Virus record (IMG/VR): IMGVR_UViG_3300011626_000001
Span: 1 to 42,973 of that record
Strand: one strand, 5' to 3'
DNA: 42,973 nt
DNA from: a virus
Taxonomy: Duplodnaviria > Heunggongvirae > Uroviricota > Caudoviricetes
Position 1 is the stretch's first letter. Each line of letters begins with the position of its first letter. Of the stretch, positions 20,655-40,913 are shown in pieces. Position numbers and translations under genes: made by a program. The notes under the pieces are model-generated. The model was not told where the DNA came from, did not search any database, and worked only from the letters and a program-made list of their open reading frames with translations.

Positions 20655-22139
20655 TTATCGTCTGAATGTTATCGGGGCCGCTTTAAGGACGCTGCGTTTC
20701 TTCTGCGTCACGGCGAAATAACGGAAGCTGTCAGCCCCGTGTGAGGTATGGTCATGCAGTGGTTTGTCTTTCCAGCAGCCGCGCTTGTCGTCCCATTCCT
20801 TGCGGTAGCCTTCCAGCGCGAGGATGCCGTCGGCACACTTATGCTCGTCAAAAGCACACTTCGGCAGGATTTCACGCACCTGTTCGATGCCGTCATCAAC
20901 ACCAAGCTTTGGCACGACCTGAAAGGTGATCGTGTATTTCACGCCATCAATCTCGTAGCCTTCGCGCGCCAGCTCGCGGCGTGATTTCGCATCCGATCCA
21001 AACTCGCGGTTGTCAATATCGTGCGGCCCCCAGTGAGCAGCATACTCATAGCCTTTATCCTTCAGCACTTTCATGTAGTGCCGGAGGCCTTCACCTGAGT
21101 TTTCGTAGTAGTCGATGACGTGATATTCCTCGCCAACAATGCGCACGAACCAGATGGCCGTTGAGTCGCCTACGCCAATATCCCAGAACGTATGAACCGG
21201 CAGATGTGAGTTGTCAGGCAGCGTACCAATGCGCTTCTGTTCGTAGAGCTTGCGGAACTGTTTTGCGTAGTAAGCGCCCTCGACTGACTGCTGAAACGCC
21301 TCCGCCGGTATCGACGGATATTCGCGCTTCATGTCATCGCCGAGCGTTTTCTCTTTGGCGTAATACCAGGCTCTCTGGCGCTCGTCTGTAACCACCCCAT
21401 GCTTTGCCTCGATGTCAGCGAAGTAATCGCTCAGGCGCTGCGGTATTGGCTCTACGGGGTCGATTGCATACAGGGGATTCTTCCACCAGGAGAAGAAGAA
21501 AAACTTCCAGTCTAACTGTGAGAGCTGCTTGCCCTGAATGAGCGCCTTTTCTGCCGACTGGCAGTAATCGAAGAAGTAACCAGCGCGGCCTTCTGCAGTG
21601 CTTTCAATCGTCGTGAAACAGTCGCCTGATACTGCCTCAAAAGCGCCGGTGACAATCTCTCGCGCTTTGTCCGGAAACTTTGCGCATATCTTCCCGAACT
21701 CCGAAACATGGAGATAGCGAAGTGTGCCGCCGCGGAAAGACGTACTGATATAAAGTGAGCCACCTTTGCTAAATACCAGCTCACCCGCTGCATCATTGCT
21801 CGCAGGGTTAGCGGCCTTAATCTCATCCGGAAGGCGGTCGTAAGCATATTTAATTTTCTCGCGGAAAAGGCGCTTTGCGTCGTTCAGGGTGTGGGCGATA
21901 AGGGCGCATTTGGCGGCTTCGAACAAAGCCGCATCCAGCTGAATAATGCAGACTTCAGTGGTGAAGCCTAACTGGCGAGCTTTCAGTATGATGTTGCGGG
22001 TATGCATGCCTTCGAAGTATTCGAGTTGCTCAGGCGTCATCTTGAAGCGTACTGGCTTGCCTTCTTTGTCGGTTATCCAGTAGAGGTGATTCAGGCGCCA
22101 GAGTTTGTCTCGCAGAAGCTTGAGATGCTCTGGTTTCAT
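20655..22139 (-). CDS. Terminase large subunit (494 aa)
   Basis: Size; position after small subunit; ATPase-type N-terminal and nuclease-type C-terminal halves. Confidence 0.8.
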   Translation of the reverse strand: MKPEHLKLLRDKLWRLNHLYWITDKEGKPVRFKMTPEQLEYFEGMHTRNIILKARQLGFTTEVCIIQLDAALFEAAKCALIAHTLNDAKRLFREKIKYAYDRLPDEIKAANPASNDAAGELVFSKGGSLYISTSFRGGTLRYLHVSEFGKICAKFPDKAREIVTGAFEAVSGDCFTTIESTAEGRAGYFFDYCQSAEKALIQGKQLSQLDWKFFFFSWWKNPLYAIDPVEPIPQRLSDYFADIEAKHGVVTDERQRAWYYAKEKTLGDDMKREYPSIPAEAFQQSVEGAYYAKQFRKLYEQKRIGTLPDNSHLPVHTFWDIGVGDSTAIWFVRIVGEEYHVIDYYENSGEGLRHYMKVLKDKGYEYAAHWGPHDIDNREFGSDAKSRRELAREGYEIDGVKYTITFQVVPKLGVDDGIEQVREILPKCAFDEHKCADGILALEGYRKEWDDKRGCWKDKPLHDHTSHGADSFRYFAVTQKKRSVLKAAPITFRR

Positions 22140-22141
22140 GC

Positions 22142-22741
22142 TTACCCCTTGGCGAGATCGTCCATCAGGTCGGATAGTTTCTTAGATGCGTCATCACCGG
22201 CAGGGCCGTCAATGTCGTACGCCTGACGCTCCAGGCCAATTAGCGTTTTAAGCGTGTCGGATAGGTCTTTCATCGACTTCACCCGCCCCGGCATGCTGAT
22301 CACCTTGTGATAAATCTCGTTGAGCCTGTCCTGCCCTTTGTCGTCAGGCTGATACATCAGGTCACCCAGCTGCTGCAATGCAGCGACGTCAGCGCATTCG
22401 GCCTCGAGTTCATCAAAGAGTGAGTTGGCAATATTGCGGGCCCGACGAATGTCTCCACGATGCTCCATGCGGACAGTGGCAATAACCTCGGCGTTTGCCT
22501 CAATCAGTATCCGTTCACAGGTAGCCGTTTCAGTGGATACCTTGCTGGATACCTCTCGTTTGGATACCAGCGCGTCAGCCTTGGCTTTTATCTTTGCCTT
22601 TAGGTCTCGCTCCCATCCATCACGCTTTGCGCGCTTATTGATGGCGCCGTGGGTGATGCCATGCTGAGATGCGATTTCTCGGATAGACAACAAGCCAGCC
22701 CGGTAAGCCGACTCGATGGCCTCCCAATCTGGTGTCGCCAT
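22142..22741 (-). CDS. Terminase small subunit (199 aa)
   Basis: N-terminal HTH (LSIREIASQHGITHGAINKRAKRDGW); immediately upstream of and coupled to the large subunit. Confidence 0.65.
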   Translation of the reverse strand: MATPDWEAIESAYRAGLLSIREIASQHGITHGAINKRAKRDGWERDLKAKIKAKADALVSKREVSSKVSTETATCERILIEANAEVIATVRMEHRGDIRRARNIANSLFDELEAECADVAALQQLGDLMYQPDDKGQDRLNEIYHKVISMPGRVKSMKDLSDTLKTLIGLERQAYDIDGPAGDDASKKLSDLMDDLAKG

Positions 22742-22773
22742 ATTTACTCCAATAAAAAACCGCCCGAAGGCGG

Positions 22774-23211
22774 TTAGCTGTTGTCTCTTAGATAATCAAT
22801 TAGCATATCAAGGCGCACTCTATCCGGCCCATCGGAGTACCACGTATTAGGTGCGGGTTGATTAGCCTCAAAAAGCGGCCTAACGTCAACATCGTCATCA
22901 ATGATTGAAATGCCAGTATCGCTTAATTGATAACAGACAACCCGGCAACTCCCTTCTGGTACTTTATCGTAGTGATCCAGTTTTCTGCTGTTCGAATAGA
23001 TTTCGTACTTTAGCTGCCTACCATCATTTGTTCTGGTCAGGAAAGTCTGAATAAGAAATCGCATCAGTGCCTCAGCTATTGAATTGTGAGGCTCCACATT
23101 AGCGCCAAGACATTGCTGATGGAATCTTATTTTATAGGGATCGATCATCATCGGGCGCACTCGCAAATGCGCCCTGTGATGAAAGCCGTTGTGAAAGTGG
23201 CTCTCAATCAC
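22774..23211 (-). CDS. Hypothetical protein (145 aa, or about 125 aa from internal start MMIDPY...)
   Basis: ORF in track; AT-rich body; N-terminal 20 codons overlap repeated hairpin A, so the internal start near 23151 is more likely. Confidence 0.4.
   Translation of the reverse strand: MIESHFHNGFHHRAHLRVRPMMIDPYKIRFHQQCLGANVEPHNSIAEALMRFLIQTFLTRTNDGRQLKYEIYSNSRKLDHYDKVPEGSCRVVCYQLSDTGISIIDDDVDVRPLFEANQPAPNTWYSDGPDRVRLDMLIDYLRDNS
23146..23182. repeat. Repeated hairpin element, copy A (CATCATCGGGCGCA-loop-TGCGCCCTGTGATGA)
   Basis: Second near-identical copy at 24806-24843; extended imperfect palindrome. Confidence 0.6.
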
Positions 23212-23376
23212 TCCTCTTTATTTTCAAGTCTTCCATAGCGAGCAGGGCATCCAGAAGAACTTCCGCCTTTTCGACGCTCGATCTGCCGAGCGCAATACGC
23301 CCGCTGTTCAGATCCTTAAATCCATCCTTCAGATAGCGACAGATGGTTTCCAGTTGCTGCTTTTCATTTTTCGTCA
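23209..23376 (-). CDS. Small hypothetical protein (55 aa) coupled to the Rha-family gene
   Basis: Hand-translated ORF MTKNEKQQLETICRYLKDG...; its ATG overlaps the Rha-gene stop; below the ORF-track size cut-off. Confidence 0.3.
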
Positions 23377-24057
23377 TGCAGCACGCTCGCTAACTTTATT
23401 TGATGCAAGCAGACCGGCAATCCACTGAATGCCTTTTGGCGTGAACTTAACCTGAGTGAACGCATGTCCGTTGTGCTGATTCTCGCCAGTTTTTACAGTG
23501 AAGCGACCAGCGTCCAGATGCTGAGCGTATGGCGTAAGCTTTCCTGCCAAGCGGTACATAATGCCGTGCTCTAGCAGGAACAGACGGAACTCGGTTTCTT
23601 TCACCTTAAGCAGCTTTGCAGCCTCACGGAAACCCATAGAGCCGGATGCCTCTACGTAGCTATCAACGAAATCAGCCTTAGGAGCGGCAATAGCGAGCTT
23701 GCTTTCAAGTTGTGCTTTTTGCTCTGCAAGGTCAGCAGCCAGACGGAGAGCCTCAGGTAATGTCTGCGGGATGCGCACCGACTCTTCAAGCTCATGCATC
23801 CGCTTAATGACCTTCATGCGAAGTAATGCGCTGTACCCTGTTACAAGGCACTCGGTATGCTCGCGATCAAGAACGTACTCGGTTTGCTTGCGGTTCATAC
23901 TGTCCAGATAGATGCGCGCAAATTTGCTCACATCCTCCTGAAGCTGTTCCATCATGGTTTCTATGTCGCGCTTTACATCTGGATGACGCTTACCCGTCAC
24001 TTCCGCAATTTCGCGGCTTGTCATTGTCAGAGACTGATCATTTACTGGGTATTGCAT
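23374..24057 (-). CDS. Rha-family regulatory protein with C-terminal antirepressor (KilA-C/Ant-like) domain
   Basis: N-terminal LTMTSREIAEVTGKRHPDVKRDIETM matches the Rha N-terminal signature; own promoter region and AGGAG SD. Confidence 0.7.
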   Translation of the reverse strand: MQYPVNDQSLTMTSREIAEVTGKRHPDVKRDIETMMEQLQEDVSKFARIYLDSMNRKQTEYVLDREHTECLVTGYSALLRMKVIKRMHELEESVRIPQTLPEALRLAADLAEQKAQLESKLAIAAPKADFVDSYVEASGSMGFREAAKLLKVKETEFRLFLLEHGIMYRLAGKLTPYAQHLDAGRFTVKTGENQHNGHAFTQVKFTPKGIQWIAGLLASNKVSERAA

Positions 24058-24188
24058 AGGGTGGTGCTCCTATAGAGAAACAAGCCTGTCGCACAGATTA
24101 AGCCGCCCCTAAGACGCACCATTAACGGCTAATCTCAGGCTTGCTTTTCTGTAGGCTTAGGGATTGATATTTGCGCGTGCGAGGCGCA

Positions 24189-24213
24189 TAAAAAAGCCCC
24201 GCGAATGCAGGGC
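24189..24213 (-). terminator. Rho-independent terminator (hairpin + T6 on minus strand) upstream of the Rha gene promoter
   Basis: Minus-strand GCCCTGC-ATTC-GCGGGGC followed by TTTTTT. Confidence 0.45.
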
Positions 24214-24503
24214 CATGATGCTTGAGGTGCTTTGTTACTTTGTCGCGCCGTCAGAGATATTTAACTGCCATTGCCTTCAGCTCATCTTTAGCCGCTGCGC
24301 CCAGCTGAGACACGCCGCTCTCTGCAAACGCCAGTGCCCTTTTAAAATCTTGCGCCTGCGTTTGCCTTGTCTAGGGGGTGTGAGAAATTCACCGCTTACG
24401 CTTGAAGGTGTCGCGAGGTTGTCTAACCTGAAAAACGTATAAGAAAAAATGAACTCCTATCACGTCCTTGGTCCACGGATGGGCTGTTTTTTTCAAGCGT
24501 GCT

Positions 24504-24707
24504 TTAAAGTCTCTTCCCCCGCTGTCGGGTAGCACTCTTGAGTTTTGGTTCGGTAATTTTGTGGCTGAGGATTTTCAGTCCAGCGGCGTTAAATTGCTGC
24601 ATTGTGAAAGGTACAGAACAGGCAGGTTTGTAAAAGCCACCTGCGTCCCAGAACCACACTAAGGGCTCAGCTACACTATCGCCTACCCAGTAGAAACCAG
24701 TTTCCAT
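24504..24707 (-). CDS. Hypothetical protein (67 aa); possibly a gene remnant
   Basis: ORF in track directly downstream of hairpin copy B; no RBS checked; weak support. Confidence 0.25.
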   Translation of the reverse strand: METGFYWVGDSVAEPLVWFWDAGGFYKPACSVPFTMQQFNAAGLKILSHKITEPKLKSATRQRGKRL

Positions 24708-24805
24708 GATGGATGTCCGGTTGAGAATGAATCCCCACCGTACGCCTTATCTGAGACGTTATCACGGTATTACTTGCAAAGTTGTATCAGTCCCGCTTCG
24801 GTACA

Positions 24806-24843
24806 CATCATCGGGCGTACTGCTTGAATGCGCCCTGTGATGA
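24806..24843. repeat. Repeated hairpin element, copy B (CATCATCGGGCG-loop-TGCGCCCTGTGATGA)
   Basis: Abuts the Rz stop codon; shares both flanking arms with copy A. Confidence 0.6.
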
Positions 24844-25296
24844 TCACTTCAAACACTGCTCATTGATGTACTGCTGCAATCCGGCTATTTGCTTCCCGGC
24901 GAGCTCGATTCGACTTCTGAGGGTGAAATAATCCCGTTCAGCGGAGTCAGTAAGTCCGGGGCTGGCTGCATCATCCAGGCTGGCGGTGCCGGTGGCGGAT
25001 TGCTTCGTGCAGGTGGCGTTGAGCTGCAACCGGCGCTTGCCAGAAGCAACGTCACGCTCAAGCTGATCGATAGTTGCCTGAGCACTGGCTAACTCCTTTG
25101 TGTATTTGGCGTCGAGCGCGGCAACATCACGCTGGCGGATCTGCATATCGTCAATCGTCTGCTGGCGCTCGGTAGCCAGGCTGTCAGCGGTAACGTATTT
25201 GCCGTGGAAAAGAATTGCTAACCGGCAGACCGTAATGAGCGCCACCAGCAGCAGGCCAATAATTAATGCTCGCCAACTAAATGTCATTTGGACCAT
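24844..25296 (-). CDS. Rz: i-spanin (Rz-like, 150 aa)
   Basis: N-terminal TM helix, coiled-coil periplasmic domain, position after endolysin. Confidence 0.75.
   Translation of the reverse strand: MVQMTFSWRALIIGLLLVALITVCRLAILFHGKYVTADSLATERQQTIDDMQIRQRDVAALDAKYTKELASAQATIDQLERDVASGKRRLQLNATCTKQSATGTASLDDAASPGLTDSAERDYFTLRSRIELAGKQIAGLQQYINEQCLK
24885..25085 (-). CDS. Rz1: o-spanin (Rz1-like lipoprotein) embedded in the +1 frame of the Rz-like gene
   Basis: Signal peptide with lipobox LLASAGC, proline-rich mature part, fully nested in Rz. Confidence 0.65.
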   Translation of the reverse strand: MLRQLSISLSVTLLLASAGCSSTPPARSNPPPAPPAWMMQPAPDLLTPLNGIISPSEVESSSPGSK

Positions 25297-25780
25297 CCGC
25301 CAGGCACATTGAACGCTCCATATCGCGTCGATTCATCAGGCCACGAAACTTCATGCCACCGGCATAAACCCAGCGGCGTAGCTCTTCACATGCACCATCC
25401 TGATCGCCTGCGTTCAGCTTCTTAAGCAGCGTAGATTTAGAGAATGCACCAGAACCGACGTTGTAGGTGAAGCTGTAGAGCGCAGCGCGCTGATATTCAT
25501 TAAGCGGCACTTTGACCAGACTATCGACCGTCTTCTTTACCGGCTGCAGGTCATTCCAAAGAAGGCGATCGCATTCGCGGTCGGTGTACTTCTTGCCTTT
25601 GATGATGTCTGTGCCGGTGTGACCATCACAGACCGTCCAGACTCCGGCAACATCTTTGTAGGGCTCGTACACACGGCCTTCCACGCCATCTTTACCGCCG
25701 AGGAATACCGTAGCGATAAGCATGGCTCCGCCACCTGCGGCAGCGATCAGCTTGTTCCGCAGTGAGTTTGACATTGCCAT
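25277..25780 (-). CDS. R: SAR endolysin (phage 21 R-type lysozyme)
   Basis: N-terminal Gly/Ala-rich signal-anchor-release segment; YEPYKDVAGVWTVCDGHTG closely resembles the phage 21 lysozyme catalytic region as I recall it. Confidence 0.85.
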   Translation of the reverse strand: MAMSNSLRNKLIAAAGGGAMLIATVFLGGKDGVEGRVYEPYKDVAGVWTVCDGHTGTDIIKGKKYTDRECDRLLWNDLQPVKKTVDSLVKVPLNEYQRAALYSFTYNVGSGAFSKSTLLKKLNAGDQDGACEELRRWVYAGGMKFRGLMNRRDMERSMCLADGPNDI

Positions 25781-25783
25781 GGG

Positions 25784-26026
25784 TTATTCCTCGGTGAGGC
25801 CGGGTGCGGTGGGCCAGCGCTGAAGCGCCTTGATCTGCGCCAGTGTGGCTTTGCGTTTGTAATACCAGTTGATGCCGAGCGTTAGCAGGGCGACCAGAAT
25901 ACCGGCCAGGACGCCTACAGCGCTCCACTCATCGGGACTAAGCCGGGTCAGAAGACCGTTGGCAATCGTCCCGGCTGACGCGCCATACGCTGCGCCTGAA
26001 GCCAGTTTGCTCATATCGATACTCAT
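25784..26026 (-). CDS. S: Pinholin (phage 21 S-type holin, 80 aa)
   Basis: Two TM segments; SPDEWSAVGVLAGILVALLTLGINWYYKRK resembles S21; paired with a SAR endolysin. Confidence 0.75.
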   Translation of the reverse strand: MSIDMSKLASGAAYGASAGTIANGLLTRLSPDEWSAVGVLAGILVALLTLGINWYYKRKATLAQIKALQRWPTAPGLTEE

Positions 26027-26158
26027 GTGACCCCCTCGGTGTTGAGGGAGCTAGCTCAATTAGGAATTGTCTACTTTCTGAACTGAGCAAGCCCGGTTAG
26101 CTTTAATCTTGTCGAGAGAGAAAAGCACCGCCCTGCCGTTGCGTAGCCAACGTTGAAG

Positions 26159-26183
26159 AATCCGCCTGAGCGCGGATTTTTTT
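26159..26183 (+). terminator. Rho-independent terminator (AATCCGC-CTGAGC-GCGGATT + T7) on plus strand
   Basis: Perfect 7-bp stem and T-run read directly; lies upstream of the 89-aa plus-strand gene, role unclear. Confidence 0.45.
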
Positions 26184-26334
26184 ATGGATAAAAATCGCCC
26201 TCTGCCCCGGATCGCTAGATTCGAAGTGTGCAGTGATTGGCAGGGGCGAAAACAGAAAGGCACCGCCGAAGCAGTGCCCTATAAAGTTTTTCAGTTTGTT
26301 GCCGATGAGAAATCCTCTAAAACAAGGAGGATTT

Positions 26335-26604
26335 ATGGCGAACAATCATCATGTATATCGAGTTCATGACTCGAAAGTAGCATCATTTAAAACAGAAGCG
26401 ATTCGTAAGCATCCGCACTTATCTATCCATGAGATTTCTACTGGCTCTCGGGATGACATAAATACTTATATAAATAAATCAGTACACGTATTCATTGCAG
26501 TTGCCGACCAAGCTACATTGGATCACTTTAATGCTGACATCAAACTTAACATTTCATTAAATTCTCAATATGAAGAATTAAGTGATAGTGAGTTTTACAT
26601 TTAG
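26335..26604 (+). CDS. Hypothetical protein (89 aa); antisense moron between Q and holin
   Basis: Strong SD AAGGAGG 6 nt before the ATG; AT-rich; followed by terminator; no family recognised. Confidence 0.5.
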   Translation: MANNHHVYRVHDSKVASFKTEAIRKHPHLSIHEISTGSRDDINTYINKSVHVFIAVADQATLDHFNADIKLNISLNSQYEELSDSEFYI

Positions 26605-26795: not shown

Positions 26796-27563
26796 CTACG
26801 CGGTTACCTTATTCAGTGCCGCATTTGCCCATGACTCTTCTGTTTCCAGCTTGCCAATCAGCGTTTCATAAAACTGCTTGCCACTTTTCTCCCACGTAGC
26901 CAGGCTGATTAAGTCAGTGATGCTGCTGATCGCGCGATATGCTGCGGTTGAAGGAATACGCTCAAACCCTCTTCCGCTGCATTGCTTACAGTCACCCATC
27001 ACCGGCACGCCCTGCCGCTCTGACTCTTTGCGCATTACTGCGCGCCCTCGCCCGTTGCAATCCCGGCACGCCGAAGACACGACACCTTTTCCCGCGCACG
27101 TTTTGCAGCGCACCCGAACCTGCTCACGCACTTCGCGTCGGCCGGCGCCGGACAGCATCGACTTCATCGTCACGACTTCAGCAGCGATAAATCCGGTGGC
27201 GCTGCAGCACTCGCACGGCTTTACGCTGGCGGCGCTGCGGCAGTAATCCAGATAGGCGTAAGTTGCGAGCACTTGCATTACAGCTGGTTTAATATCGGTT
27301 TCAAGCTTGCGAAGGGCGGCAACCCGATCGCAGGTCTGCAGTGCAAAATCAGTTAACAGGGATACGGCGCGTCGGGCGTCGTTCTCGCTTACTCCAACCT
27401 TCCCCATGAAGGCTGCATAACCCAGCGGCGCGCGGCTTTGCGTCATGCCCATGGCTGCTACATAGTCGGTCCCGGTCATCGCGTCGGGCGATGTCTGTGG
27501 AGCCGTGCCACTGAAGTTCTGGCCCTTCGGGAAGTGATACTTCACTGTTGCTTCAAGGCTCAT
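26796..27563 (-). CDS. Q: Late antiterminator Q-like protein (255 aa)
   Basis: Position between nin genes and the lysis cassette; Cys-rich zinc-binding segment (CKTCAGKG...CRDCNGRG). Confidence 0.6.
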   Translation of the reverse strand: MSLEATVKYHFPKGQNFSGTAPQTSPDAMTGTDYVAAMGMTQSRAPLGYAAFMGKVGVSENDARRAVSLLTDFALQTCDRVAALRKLETDIKPAVMQVLATYAYLDYCRSAASVKPCECCSATGFIAAEVVTMKSMLSGAGRREVREQVRVRCKTCAGKGVVSSACRDCNGRGRAVMRKESERQGVPVMGDCKQCSGRGFERIPSTAAYRAISSITDLISLATWEKSGKQFYETLIGKLETEESWANAALNKVTA

Positions 27564-36168: not shown

Positions 36169-36261
36169 ACGAAGTGCTGAAAAGGTTATTAACTAATTCT
36201 GTATTTGCATAATCAGCCATTTTTTCTAGGCTTAAAAAGTAACTTAAGCCCAGGAGGAAAT

Positions 36262-36588
36262 ATGTTAGAGCAGTACAAAAAATGCATCGAAGCGTGTTAC
36301 CTGTGTGCAGCTGCTTGCGATAACTGTGCGGCATCGTGCCTTGAAGAAGAGAACCTGGAAATGATGCGCCAGTGCATCAAAATGGATATGCAATGCGCAA
36401 ACATTTGCCGACTCGCTGCTCAGTTTATGGCTTTGAAAAGTGAGTCAGCCAACGAAATTTGTCAGCTGTGCGCAGATGTTTGCCAGAAGTGCGGTGATGA
36501 ATGTGGTCAGCATAACCATGACCACTGTCAGGAATGTTCCAAAGCCTGTCATCACTGTGCAGAGCAGTGCCGCAAGATGGCCGCTTGA
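36262..36588 (+). CDS. Cysteine-rich four-helix-bundle-type metal-binding protein (about 18 Cys in 108 aa)
   Basis: Repeated CxxxC spacing throughout; AGGAGG SD; own AT-rich upstream region and terminator. Confidence 0.55.
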   Translation: MLEQYKKCIEACYLCAAACDNCAASCLEEENLEMMRQCIKMDMQCANICRLAAQFMALKSESANEICQLCADVCQKCGDECGQHNHDHCQECSKACHHCAEQCRKMAA

Positions 36589-36628: not shown

Positions 36629-36813
36629 TTGCCTAAAACAGGCCGTTTAAGTGACACCGCAATGGCCTGTTACGACAGGTCATGACGGTGCATTTGCACC
36701 AGACGCGTAATGAGCCGCAATGCGGTACGAGAGTTTTTCGCCTTTGGCTCCTGTAGGAATGCAGGGGCCATTTTTTTAACCACACCACCCCAACCCATTT
36801 AAGGATGTCCACG

Positions 36814-37372: not shown

Positions 37373-38190
37373 TGGAGCCCGGCATCTATTACGACATCAG
37401 CAACGAGTCGTACCACAGCGGCCCCGGCATCAGCAAATCGCAGCTGGACGACATCGCTATAAACCCGGCCATCTTCCAGTGGCGCAAAGAAGCGCCCGAG
37501 GACGAAGAGAAAAAAGCTGCGCTGGATATGGGCACCGCCCTGCACTGCCTGCTGCTGGAGCCCGAAGAATTCGATAACCGCTTCATCGTGGCGCCAGAAT
37601 TCAACCGGCGCACCAACGAGGGAAAGGCGAACGAGAAAGCTTTTCTGAAAGACTGCGCCGGGCTGGGCATGACTGTGATGGACGCCGAGGAAGGTCGCAA
37701 ACTGAAGCTTATGCGCGCCAGCGCCCTCGCCCATCCGGCCGCGCGCTGGCTGCTGGAAGCTGAAGGCCATCAGGAAGCATCAATCTACTGGAACGACGAG
37801 CAGACCGGCGAGCTTTGCCGGATCCGGCCAGACAAGTTCCTGTCCGGCCAGCCTGTCATCGTCGACGTGAAAAAAGTGGCTGATATGTCCCGCTTTGCCC
37901 GCCACGTCGAAGAGTTCCGCTATCACGTTCAGGACGCCTACTACCGCGAGGGCTTCAGTAAGCACTTCGGCGAGTACCCGCTTTTCGTGTTCATCGCCGT
38001 CAGCGAGTCGATCGACTGCGGCCGCTATCCGGTGCGCACCTTCCAGCTTCAGGAGGACGATGTTGCCGTCGGCTATGACCTGTTCCGCCGCGACCTGACC
38101 ACCTATCACGAATGCATGCTTACCGGTAACTGGGGCGGCATTGAAGAAATCACGCGCCCGGACTGGGCCAAAAGGAAGGATTACGCATGA
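37369..38190 (+). CDS. Recombination exonuclease (RecE/YqaJ-type PD-(D/E)XK nuclease)
   Basis: IYYDISNESYHSGPGISKSQLDDI N-terminus and IVDVKK motif typical of phage RecE-like exonucleases; coupled to the RecT-like gene. Confidence 0.6.
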   Translation: MMEPGIYYDISNESYHSGPGISKSQLDDIAINPAIFQWRKEAPEDEEKKAALDMGTALHCLLLEPEEFDNRFIVAPEFNRRTNEGKANEKAFLKDCAGLGMTVMDAEEGRKLKLMRASALAHPAARWLLEAEGHQEASIYWNDEQTGELCRIRPDKFLSGQPVIVDVKKVADMSRFARHVEEFRYHVQDAYYREGFSKHFGEYPLFVFIAVSESIDCGRYPVRTFQLQEDDVAVGYDLFRRDLTTYHECMLTGNWGGIEEITRPDWAKRKDYA

Positions 38191-39095
38191 GCAACGAAAT
38201 TACGCACGCGCCGGTCAACGAGGCCGACACCAAAGCGGCAATCTTCAGCCCGAGCGGTCTGCAAAAGTTACAGGCTTTCGCCAAAGTCATGGCTGAAGGT
38301 CGTGCAACAGTGCCAGCCCACCTGGCAGGTAAACCTGCTGATTGCCTGGCAATTGCGTTACAGGCGGCCCAGTGGGGAATGAATCCATATGCGGTGGCGC
38401 AAAAAACGCATCTCGTTAACGGAACGCTGGGCTATGAGGCGCAACTGGTTAATGCAGTCATCACCAGTTCAACAGCCGTTCAGGGGCGTTTTAAATACGA
38501 ATACGGCGGCGACTGGGGGAAATTCAAGCCTGGTGCAGCTAATGCGGCCAACGAGCGCGGCCTGTTTGTTCGTGTCGGCGCAGTGCTGCGCGGCGAAACG
38601 GAAATCACCTGGGGCGAACCGCTATTTATGGAGTACGTCACTACGCGTAACTCTCCGCTCTGGAAGACGGCGCCGAAGCAGCAACTGGCTTATCTGGCCG
38701 TCAAATACTGGGCGCGACTTTACTGCCCTGATGTGATTCTCGGCGTTTACACCCCGGATGAGTTCGAACCGGCGCAGCGCGCGGAACGCGACGTCACCCC
38801 GGCGCGCAGCCGGGCAGACCTGAACAACCTGATCAACAGCAAGCCCGAAACGCAGCAGCCCGAGCGCGAAATTAACCCGGCGACGAACACCAGTGCACCA
38901 GCGCGCACGCCGGACGAGTTGCTTGCCGATTTCACCACCGCTGCAGCTGAAGCGGAAAACGTTGCCGGTCTGGACCGCTGCTACAAATACGCGGCACGCA
39001 TGCTGGCGAATGAGGCTGACACGCTCGAAAAAGCCACCGATGTTTACCTGCTTCGCAAAGCAGAGCTGGACGAGGACGGGGCCGCCAATGCGTAA
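38187..39095 (+). CDS. recT: RecT-family single-strand annealing protein
   Basis: Follows the exonuclease with overlapping start; sequence features consistent with RecT family; paired exo/annealase architecture. Confidence 0.65.
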   Translation: MSNEITHAPVNEADTKAAIFSPSGLQKLQAFAKVMAEGRATVPAHLAGKPADCLAIALQAAQWGMNPYAVAQKTHLVNGTLGYEAQLVNAVITSSTAVQGRFKYEYGGDWGKFKPGAANAANERGLFVRVGAVLRGETEITWGEPLFMEYVTTRNSPLWKTAPKQQLAYLAVKYWARLYCPDVILGVYTPDEFEPAQRAERDVTPARSRADLNNLINSKPETQQPEREINPATNTSAPARTPDELLADFTTAAAEAENVAGLDRCYKYAARMLANEADTLEKATDVYLLRKAELDEDGAANA

Positions 39096-40121: not shown

Positions 40122-40333
40122 TGGCTAAGCAAAACCGCTATATCTACCATTACTGCGCAGCGCAAGGTAATGCGACTGTCTCGGGTATCGCTCAGCTGAC
40201 TTTCCGAATTGTCTCTCAGGAAGACCTGAACAGACTGAAGCAGTTTGTCTCTGACGATCTCAGCTTTCAGGCTGTCGCCATTGTTTCTCTCTCGTATTTA
40301 GGCCGAGAGAATGAGGATGCAGCCCATGCGTGA
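40118..40333 (+). CDS. Hypothetical protein (71 aa)
   Basis: ORF in track, coupled to neighbours. Confidence 0.35.
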   Translation: MMAKQNRYIYHYCAAQGNATVSGIAQLTFRIVSQEDLNRLKQFVSDDLSFQAVAIVSLSYLGRENEDAAHA

Positions 40334-40913
40334 ACGCCCAATCCTCTTAAACGCCGACATGGTGCGCAATACCAACACCAACGCCCGAATCTACCCAGGC
40401 AAAGGTTTAGACCAAAATTCACCTGAGCATTTGGCGCGCCGACTTGCAAATGGGTGCTGCATCAACGAACAAACCGAATGCTGGGAGTGGCAGCGGCACA
40501 CCAACAATGCTGGTTACGGGAAACTAACCATCAATGGCCGTGGAGTTTATGCCCATCGACTGGCCTATCAGTTAACTAAAGGAGATTTACCACAAGGCAT
40601 GGAGGTTTTGCACTCCTGCGACAATCCGGCGTGCATTAATCCAGCACACCTGGCTGCCGGAACTCACTCGCAAAACATGAAAGATTGCAGCGCCAAAGGT
40701 CGCGCCAAAATGCCAACCGTTATCGTGCGCGGAGAAAGAAATGGCGCTGCTAAGTTGCGCGAGGTGGATGTTCGTTCTATCAAGCGCCTTTTGGAAAAGG
40801 GTTGGACGCAAAGGGATATCGCTGAGCGGTTCGGCATATCGCAAAGTCAGGTCAGCCATATAAAGCTTGGCAGGGCTTGGGTCATCGAGTTTAAGCGCGT
40901 GGAGGTGGAATGA
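40311..40913 (+). CDS. HNH endonuclease with C-terminal HTH
   Basis: CWEW...GYG...AHRLAY...HSCDNPACINPAHL is a classic HNH_3 / AP2-type signature; C-terminal HTH (TQRDIAERFGISQSQVSHI). Confidence 0.75.
   Translation: MRMQPMRERPILLNADMVRNTNTNARIYPGKGLDQNSPEHLARRLANGCCINEQTECWEWQRHTNNAGYGKLTINGRGVYAHRLAYQLTKGDLPQGMEVLHSCDNPACINPAHLAAGTHSQNMKDCSAKGRAKMPTVIVRGERNGAAKLREVDVRSIKRLLEKGWTQRDIAERFGISQSQVSHIKLGRAWVIEFKRVEVE

Follow-up and report, generated by a model that had tools for sequence, protein, structure and literature searches.

Structured hairpins at the joints of accessory-gene cassettes in the operons of lambdoid phages

Mosaic genome evolution is classically illustrated by the lambdoid phages, and what sets the joints between their modules is still debated. 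One such set of joints is found in a complete lambdoid prophage of the Caudoviricetes (IMG/VR record IMGVR_UViG_3300011626_000001; the window denotes the whole stretch of 42,973 nucleotides analysed here), the late genes of which are encoded on the minus strand. Its host genus is, judged from sequence comparison, probably Pantoea, as the exact hairpin considered below is present in four Pantoea species. In this window, two copies of a hairpin, here denoted hp2, lie 1.66 kb apart in direct orientation between lysis and packaging genes (copy A, 23146-23182; copy B, 24806-24843) and bracket a module with a Rha-type antirepressor gene. The original prediction, made from the letters alone, interpreted them as the duplicated junctions of one inserted regulatory cassette or, alternatively, as RNA structures of the late transcript. 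What are these hairpins, and why does one stand on each side of the Rha module? With moderate confidence, hp2, with or without a partner hairpin (hp1), is regarded as a widespread structured intergenic family punctuating accessory-gene cassettes in lambdoid operons, of which copies A and B are independent members, and which would combine a role in RNA stability or processing with that of a recombination joint.

Structure, strand, and placement of the hairpins

Both copies were recovered in the window, where the pattern CATCATCGGGCG-N8-18-CGCCCTGTGATGA yields exactly these two matches, compared with 0 expected from 100 shuffles. Read on the coding (minus) strand, they share the 5' arm TCATCACAGGGCGCATT, differ at one of the 16 positions of the 3' arm (AGTGCGCCC vs AGTACGCCC), and possess loops unlike in sequence and in length (8 vs 9 nt between the arms in A and B, respectively). 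The element on this strand reads UCAUCA-CA-GGGCGCAUU-loop-AGUGCGCCC-GA-UGAUGA. Copy A carries a UGCG tetraloop, and copy B takes the form UCAUCA/CA/GGGCGCAUU-loop-AGUACGCCC/GA/UGAUG with one C.A mismatch in the upper stem. RNA fold energies amount to -24.6 and -17.8 kcal/mol for A and B (z about -3), and the covariance model R1 scores them at 58.4 bits (E=2e-16) and 48.6 bits (E=3e-13). A coding explanation was rejected, since lengths of 37 and 38 nt would break the reading frame.

Across its versions, hp2 shows a constant architecture, consisting of a lower stem of 5-6 bp and an upper stem of 9 bp, separated by an invariable CA/GA internal loop and closed by a loop that is often of the UNCG type. 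The consensus arms are (U/C)CAUYA and URAUG, and the consensus is free of bulges. The stems themselves are exchanged as pairs: upper stems were found as GGGCGCA/UGCGCCC, AGGCGCA/UGCGCCU, AAGCCCA/UGGGCUU, AAGCGUC/GGCGCUU, AUGCCCG/CGGGCAU, and AAAGCUC/GAGCUUU, and lower stems as CAUCA/UGAUG, CAUUA/UAAUG, and ACCA/UGGU. In 46 sequences anchored by hp1, 97% of the cells are paired, a percentage inflated by the choice of the alignments A1 and A2 by fold energy or pairing, which leaves the number of double changes unaffected; seven pairs are changed on both sides. The 104 compensatory cells of this set were reached by none of 500 shuffles, and pairing falls to 28-45% in controls with slid partners. 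Among 33 distinct hp2 sequences, nine of 14 pairs are doubly changed, with 89 compensatory cells, a number likewise reached by none of 500 shuffles, and RNAalifold recovers both hp1 and hp2 unaided.

Several features assign this structure to a strand. When detection relied on the flanks only, the coding strand of the upper stem showed 33 G.U as opposed to 7 A.C cells. The apical U.G pair is kept in 40 of the 46 sequences, and loops of the UNCG type (UGCG, UACG, UCCG) are frequent. Almost all informative contexts (96/97) are co-oriented with the surrounding long open reading frames (ORFs), and in 93 of 102 contexts the hairpin lies outside such frames. The G.U bias, the apical U.G pair, the UNCG-type loops, and the co-orientation with genes argue for RNA rather than DNA. 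Comparative analysis thus establishes hp2 as a conserved, sense-strand, intergenic structure of the RNA type, in which structure rather than sequence is conserved. The alternative offered by the original prediction, an RNA structure of the late transcript, is better supported by these features and by the covariation than its first choice.

Two forms of hp2 are distinguished. In the short form, to which copy B belongs, UCAUCAC... follows right after a TGA, TAA or TAG codon; in the long form, hp1 stands ahead. In 36 of 68 contexts, the short form begins 0-5 nt past a stop codon that closes a frame of 50 codons or more, and hp2 sits at the 3' edge of a cistron. This also applies to the window: copy B adjoins the stop codon of Rz (TGA, 24844-24846) without a gap, as the original prediction had noticed, and copy A lies after the Rha/ANT gene and a coupled ORF of 57 aa. 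The predicted late message, with hp2 in sense, reads holin-endolysin-Rz, hp2, 67-aa ORF and further to Rha-57-aa ORF, hp1-hp2, and finally ORF-terS-terL. Some further features were observed downstream of hp2. Pantoea phages carry a GTGATA(G) motif 35-45 nt after the hairpin (in the window at about 24740-24800, minus strand), and phages of E. coli and Salmonella possess inverted TATCCCC...GGGGATA or GGATAA repeats (L147, 3540-3590; L149, 3733-3790; loci compared here are numbered with an L). The conserved segment downstream of hp2 may represent a third structured module.

The partner hairpin hp1, missed by the original prediction, is located at 23181-23205 (minus strand), immediately 5' of copy A and directly after the stop codon of the 57-aa ORF; it shares 2 nt with the lower stem of hp2. 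In the window it reads GAGAGCC-ACUUUCACAAC-GGCUUUC, with a 7-bp stem including two G.U pairs and an 11-nt loop. The consensus GAGAGCC-NNUUUCACAAC-GGCUYUY is near-invariant, and the long form of the hairpin corresponds to an extension of 23-25 nt, GAGAGCC-NN-TTTCACAAC-GGCTYTY, ahead of hp2. The last 9 nt of the loop (UUUCACAAC) are invariant across genera; the two remaining loop bases vary. A scan for hp1 gave at least 120 viral contigs. The matches listed comprise 110 distinct downstream contexts, and the three stem positions left free by the search pattern read Y-T-Y in 112 of 114 contexts among them, i.e. only G-C or G.U occurs opposite G. The genes upstream of hp1, again among the matches listed, encode KilA-N (35 loci), P22-type Rha (34), Rha plus ANT (16), small ORFs (27), and HNH and others; since these genes vary, the element is not the tail of a single gene family.

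In a little over half of the hp1 cases hp2 follows, in many covarying versions, and both hairpins also occur independently of each other. In L009 (oriented), a canonical intrinsic terminator (GCCCCGUCCGGGGCUUUUUU) stands at position 41, where hp2 would follow hp1, and in Hafnia-type phages a Shine-Dalgarno sequence and a start codon come directly after hp1. Because hp2 is replaced in this manner, hp1 and hp2 are considered separable modules.

A third, diverged hp2-type hairpin, likewise overlooked by the original prediction, was found with the model R1 at 36655-36690 on the plus strand (25.2 bits, E=1.7e-5; fold energy -27.4 kcal/mol, z=-5.2). It reads CACCG/CA/AUGGCCUGU-UACG-ACAGGUCAU/GA/CGGUG and displays the same architecture as A and B. 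It is situated in the early-left region and co-oriented with the early genes of the plus strand; a Cys-rich DUF326 gene (36205-36588) with its terminator precedes it. Exact matches occur in 20 viral contigs, which share a conserved downstream flank and show at least eight different flanks upstream.

Distribution and coincidence with mosaic joints

With exact arms, the hairpin was detected in 16 viral contigs, in which the sequence to either side of it is unrelated. Among genome contigs sampled at one genome per species, exact Pantoea arms occur in the four Pantoea species and in one chance match from Treponema, a scan that says little about diverged copies. The hp2 family as a whole is represented in 153 phage records, including HK022 (two copies), Sf6 (two, at 37835-37870 and 38499-38538), HK620, ST64T, ES18, Stx phages, and P22; many phages hold 2-3 copies that separate different cassettes. 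The hairpin is further present in 1364 of 5426 complete E. coli genomes. The covarying hairpin family, with its near-invariant partner, sits at late-operon joints and is present in about a quarter of the complete genomes of this species, O157 prophages included. The E. coli places sampled all lie between lysis and terminase genes (3/3). With one exact hairpin per matching Pantoea record and a median of 1 place per E. coli genome, a dispersal of the REP/BIME type through the host chromosome outside prophages was not encountered. The right end of phage lambda (44000-48502) contains no hp2.

BLAST searches with the long form retrieved diverged versions just after a Rha, Ant or KilA-N gene, between Rz and the terminase genes. 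Relatives of this form are found in the Salmonella phages ES18, SPN9CC, PS34, and Oslo, in Cronobacter ENT47670/ES2, and in a siphovirus from bat gut (Flyfo Tbat2_3); Hafnia yong1 has hp1 only. Just downstream of the element, ENT47670 (L023, 4576-5220) and Oslo (L025, 3309-3947) carry genes annotated as 'transposase'. Both match Pfam PhageMetallopep with E about 1e-42 and are mis-annotated, and no HUH or tyrosine recombinase is located nearby; the idea of a transposon or insertion sequence was rejected on these grounds.

The element is unannotated in every case from P22, HK022, Sf6, HK620, ES18, and E. coli. A search of Rfam 15 with positions 22000-26500 (E<=1) gave no match to the hairpins, with one chance match elsewhere in the stretch. 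Strings of the hp1 sequence retrieved nothing from the full-text literature, where an earlier mention in the genome papers of HK620, Sf6, and ES18 cannot be excluded; the papers on epsilon34, phage L, and the P22 pid locus do not describe the element. The hp2/hp1 family is a structured boundary element that is unannotated in well-studied phages and absent from Rfam. It also flags probable mis-annotations: P22 (L202) contains one hp2 at 40311-40347, and the annotated orf25 of 25 codons (40329-40406) starts at an ATG within the hairpin loop and is probably not a gene.

How the hairpins relate to the joints becomes apparent when the region is compared with its relatives by BLAST, as homology stops exactly at the hairpin edges. 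The locus L013 equals the window plus an extra cassette placed exactly at hairpin B. Its match to the window runs from the holin gene through hairpin B and breaks off at 24806; after 2.57 kb of other sequence, the match is taken up again at 24843 and covers hp1-hp2 and the 67-aa cassette. The element at 23145-23205 forms an island of homology in L001, L003, L007, L009, L012, L014, and L023, and L006 and L010 carry segments of the window in a different arrangement, with hp2 at the joints. Copies with 100% identity to A were found in L001, L002, L010, and L016/L017, and L004 and L013 hold copies with 100% identity to B. Among about 200 loci, no empty site (one hairpin, no cassette) was found; other or extra cassettes occupy the same hairpin. 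The homologues of the ORF downstream of copy A gave no empty site either, and almost all of them have their own hp2 variant 35-130 nt upstream, with unrelated sequence beyond. As far as these alignments reach, the position of hp2 coincides with mosaic breakpoints. The hairpins do mark cassette boundaries, as the original prediction had it; the further claim that they are the duplicated junctions of a single insertion is not supported (see below), and a wide spread of the hairpin, as observed here, had been named by the original prediction itself as a refuting outcome.

A proposed role and its rivals

In the favoured reading, the hp2 RNA would serve between cistrons to stabilise or process the message. 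As a barrier to 3'->5' exonucleases it would shield the cistron upstream, and enzymes of the RNase III type may find an entry point at the CA/GA internal loop, so that the fate of the mRNA could be set cassette by cassette within a late transcript of >20 kb. As for the DNA, the 36-60 bp common to co-resident lambdoid phages would provide homology enough for annealing recombinases of the RecT/Red/Erf type, and cassettes would be gained, lost, and swapped precisely at hp2 elements. Annealing recombination systems work with homology over a few tens of bases, and the phage encodes RecT together with a PDDEXK exonuclease. The presence of a copy on each side of the Rha module would follow from such an exchange of cassettes. 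If hp2 governs segmental mRNA stability or processing, this would explain how morons such as antirepressor, KilA-N, and virulence or defence genes are expressed independently in a 20-kb antiterminated transcript; if it is a preferred crossover point, it would offer a testable mechanism of cassette exchange and a landmark for the annotation and engineering of prophages.

Elements of comparable position are familiar. Intercistronic hairpins that stabilise or process mRNA include REP in malE-malF, the C(UUCG)G hairpins of T4, the RNase III sites of T7 (R1.1 type), and lambda sib. Like these, hp2 forms a stable hairpin just past a cistron in a polycistronic phage mRNA, and it often shows an apical loop of the UNCG type alongside an internal loop. 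An RNase III site of the T7 R1.1 type has a stem of about two helical turns with an internal loop, and the likeness of hp2 to it is partial (5-6 bp, a 2x2 loop, then 9 bp). The stem of hp2 is shorter than in T7 RNase III sites, and its CA/GA loop and flanking hp1 are without counterpart among the known hairpins. Small repeated intergenic stem-loops at exchanged cassettes also occur in T4-type phages, where elements called PeSL, for promoter-early stem-loop, lie in hyperplastic regions and recombination between their copies shuffles, deletes, and inserts non-essential genes (PMC2839356). A PeSL combines a strong sigma-70 promoter with a terminator stem-loop (PMC2839356); hp2, in contrast, lacks a promoter consensus and a U-tract and resides inside a Q-antiterminated operon of temperate lambdoid phages. 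The moron concept, which is attributed to Juhala et al. in 2000, includes no conserved structured boundary element and differs from hp2 in this regard. Morons are promoter-gene-terminator insertions in phage late operons (concept discussed in PMC2629481), and the Rha, KilA-N, and ANT genes between lysis and terminase genes, with terminators of their own, are classic examples.

Several points weigh against the favoured reading, in addition to the choice of alignments mentioned above. Inverted repeats under a dimeric DNA-binding protein can covary too, and what favours RNA over DNA is confined to the bias towards G.U, the loops of the UNCG type, and the orientation. The RNA-level function of hp2 is inferred. 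With 14 bp and a 2x2 loop, the hairpin is shorter than classical RNase III substrates. Breaks at the ends of the element are expected for any conserved island and are no proof of catalysed recombination. Finally, the strict CA/GA loop and the near-invariant AUG of the 3' arm are unexplained by a simple exonuclease barrier and hint at a specific partner.

The invariance of the CA/GA loop and of the hp1 loop likewise suggests specific partners. A more far-reaching reading, thought less likely than not, is that hp1 and hp2, and the hp2 family more broadly, constitute a hitherto unrecognised class of functional RNA or DNA punctuation in lambdoid phages, in which elements at cassette ends are read by conserved host factors and double as designated exchange points. 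On this view, the ribosome, 16S rRNA or NusB/E might recognise the hp1 loop, and an RNase or some other protein might recognise the CA/GA loop. Such a class could amount, speculatively, to an integron-like cassette system for morons that operates via general recombination and RNA-level control.

Among the rivals, a DNA site for a site- or structure-specific recombinase, like integron attC or the core site of a tyrosine recombinase, is judged unlikely. Such a site would account for the 14-bp imperfect inverted arms with a spacer of 8-9 bp and an unpaired central spacer, and the general layout recalls integrons, where co-oriented promoterless cassettes are arrayed with an imperfect hairpin near each stop codon, joints fall exactly at the hairpins, and structure is kept over sequence with a variable loop. 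However, hp2 displays neither the R-box consensus (the R''/R' core motifs RYYYAAC/GTTRRRY) nor extrahelical bases, and with 36-38 nt it is far shorter than attC (57-141 nt). No integron integrase (IntI) or extra recombinase was found near the element in the window and eight annotated relatives, the whole window not having been scanned protein by protein. The prevalence of G.U over A.C and the UNCG-type loops are features of RNA, and the evidence favours this over folded single-stranded DNA.

It is equally considered improbable that hp2 is a passive boundary sequence, functionless and similar between phages only through repeated homologous exchange. Lambdoid boundary sequences (bsq), a concept reportedly due to Clark et al. 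in 2001 and Casjens et al. in 2004, are thought to favour recombination. They are short conserved stretches with unrelated flanks at module joints, and hp2 behaves in the same way as an island of identity at mosaic joints in a phage that encodes RecT. Such features are even annotated in Sf6 as bsq2-bsq7, but none of these overlaps the hp2 copies of this phage. Moreover, hp2 goes beyond a conserved sequence: pairing is kept through 7-9 double substitutions with a strand-specific G.U bias, and orientation and post-stop position are constant across phages of Pantoea, Salmonella, E. coli, Cronobacter, and Hafnia.

That hp1 and hp2 together form a regulatory RNA bound by a protein or the ribosome, in the manner of nut, put or boxA, and affect elongation or the expression of the packaging genes, is thought quite improbable. 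The 9-nt loop of hp1, invariant across genera in at least 120 contigs, does argue for a sequence-specific, host-conserved partner; the CA/GA loop of hp2 is invariant as well, and the two-hairpin layout recalls nut and put sites. The invariant 9 nt of hp1 are exactly complementary to the 16S rRNA string GUUGUGAAA in the region of helix 35, and the loop also resembles rrn boxA, with 10 of 13 positions matched in the UC variant. Both matches may be coincidental. A 9-nt rRNA complement has a chance expectation of roughly 1-2% and lies here in a structured part of 16S, and the two variable bases of the hp1 loop sit in the boxA-like core. Against this proposal also stand the independent occurrence of hp1 and hp2 and the fact that Q (26796-27563) already renders late transcription terminator-resistant.

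A translational device, in which the 3' arm hides a downstream AUG and ribosomes terminating at the stop codon next to the 5' arm open the hairpin for coupling or reinitiation, appears very unlikely. The 5' arm adjoins a stop codon in many copies, nearly all 3' arms contain an AUG within GAUGAUG or GAUAAUG, and in the window a frame is open from the AUG of copy A. The frames opened by the hairpin AUG are short, however, with a median of about 10 codons (7/72 reach at least 40 codons), the third copy ends with CGGUG and has no AUG, and the ORF that follows copy A shows no alignment to its homologues before residue 30, where this ORF has a Shine-Dalgarno sequence of its own. As a general function, translational start or coupling was rejected on account of the short frames and the third copy.

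Most improbable is the scar or target-site duplication of one Rha cassette inserted between lysis and packaging genes, since the copies, although they bracket a self-contained module with its own terminator in direct orientation, differ from each other in loop and one arm base while each being identical to copies elsewhere, the interval comprises two cassettes, the hairpin is widespread in the contigs, phage records, and E. coli genomes counted above as a single, double or triple element beside many unrelated genes, no transposase, recombinase or other mobility gene was found by Pfam in or beside the cassette (only Rha plus ANT and small ORFs), and none of the loci compared offers an empty site.

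Two simpler devices were rejected as well. An intrinsic terminator is not formed by hp2, as the hairpin is followed by GAUGAUGAUCG or GAUAAUGAAAC, i.e. without a U-tract, and the scan that lists the true terminators omits it. No sigma-70 promoter consensus was detected at or beside hp1/hp2, and TTCACA of the hp1 loop lacks a suitable -10.

Genes and minor features of the window

The lysis and packaging genes that flank the hairpins are all encoded on the minus strand. A Q antiterminator gene (26796-27563) is followed by a P21-type holin (25784-26026), a lysozyme (25277-25780), and the Rz spanin gene (24844-25296; Pfam Phage_lysis, E=4e-39) with an embedded Rz1 (24885-25085); the terminase genes terS and terL are found at 22142-22741 and 20655-22139.

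The first of the two cassettes between the hairpins (24195-24707, minus strand) comprises an ORF of 67 aa (24504-24707), a gene remnant, and an intrinsic terminator before Rha (24214-24195). The terminator scan also lists an intrinsic terminator just ahead of terS (22775-22758, minus strand), and one on the opposite strand was located after the 67-aa ORF (24469-24486, plus strand). Polymerase modified by Q presumably passes the intrinsic terminators in the late operon, which would insulate morons in the lysogen. The remnant, at about 24255-24372 on the minus strand, represents the 3' end of a gene (...AQLGAAAKDELKAMAVKYL*), truncated by an upstream in-frame stop. Its intact homologues in L006, L010, L011, L016, and L017 end exactly at hp2; in the window, a terminator takes the position of this hairpin, and remnant and terminator together are regarded as the trace of an earlier rearrangement.

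The Rha/ANT antirepressor-like gene (23374-24057, minus strand) matches Pfam ANT (E=9e-29) and Phage_pRha (E=2e-14). It is overlapped at ATGA by the coupled ORF at 23204-23377 (minus strand). Most of the gene content announced by the original prediction was recovered: the 67-aa ORF, the minus-strand terminator, and the Rha-family gene are in place, and the coupled small ORF exists with 57 aa instead of the 55 proposed. The promoter region placed upstream of Rha was not confirmed, as no sigma-70 consensus promoter is present there. The predicted ORF between copy A and terS exists as well.

This ORF (22774-23151 frame, minus strand, stop at 22774) is without a Pfam match. Its start codon is probably ATG 23064 and not one of the ATGATG within the hairpin; a GAGG Shine-Dalgarno sequence precedes ATG 23064, the codon that corresponds to residue 30, from which the distant homologues align. 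In many relatives, a small hairpin covers the Shine-Dalgarno sequence between hp2 and a start of the 23064 type. Between Q and the holin, an ORF of 123 aa (26233-26604, plus strand) without a Pfam match adjoins a tR'-like terminator (26280-26257) and may represent a further moron.

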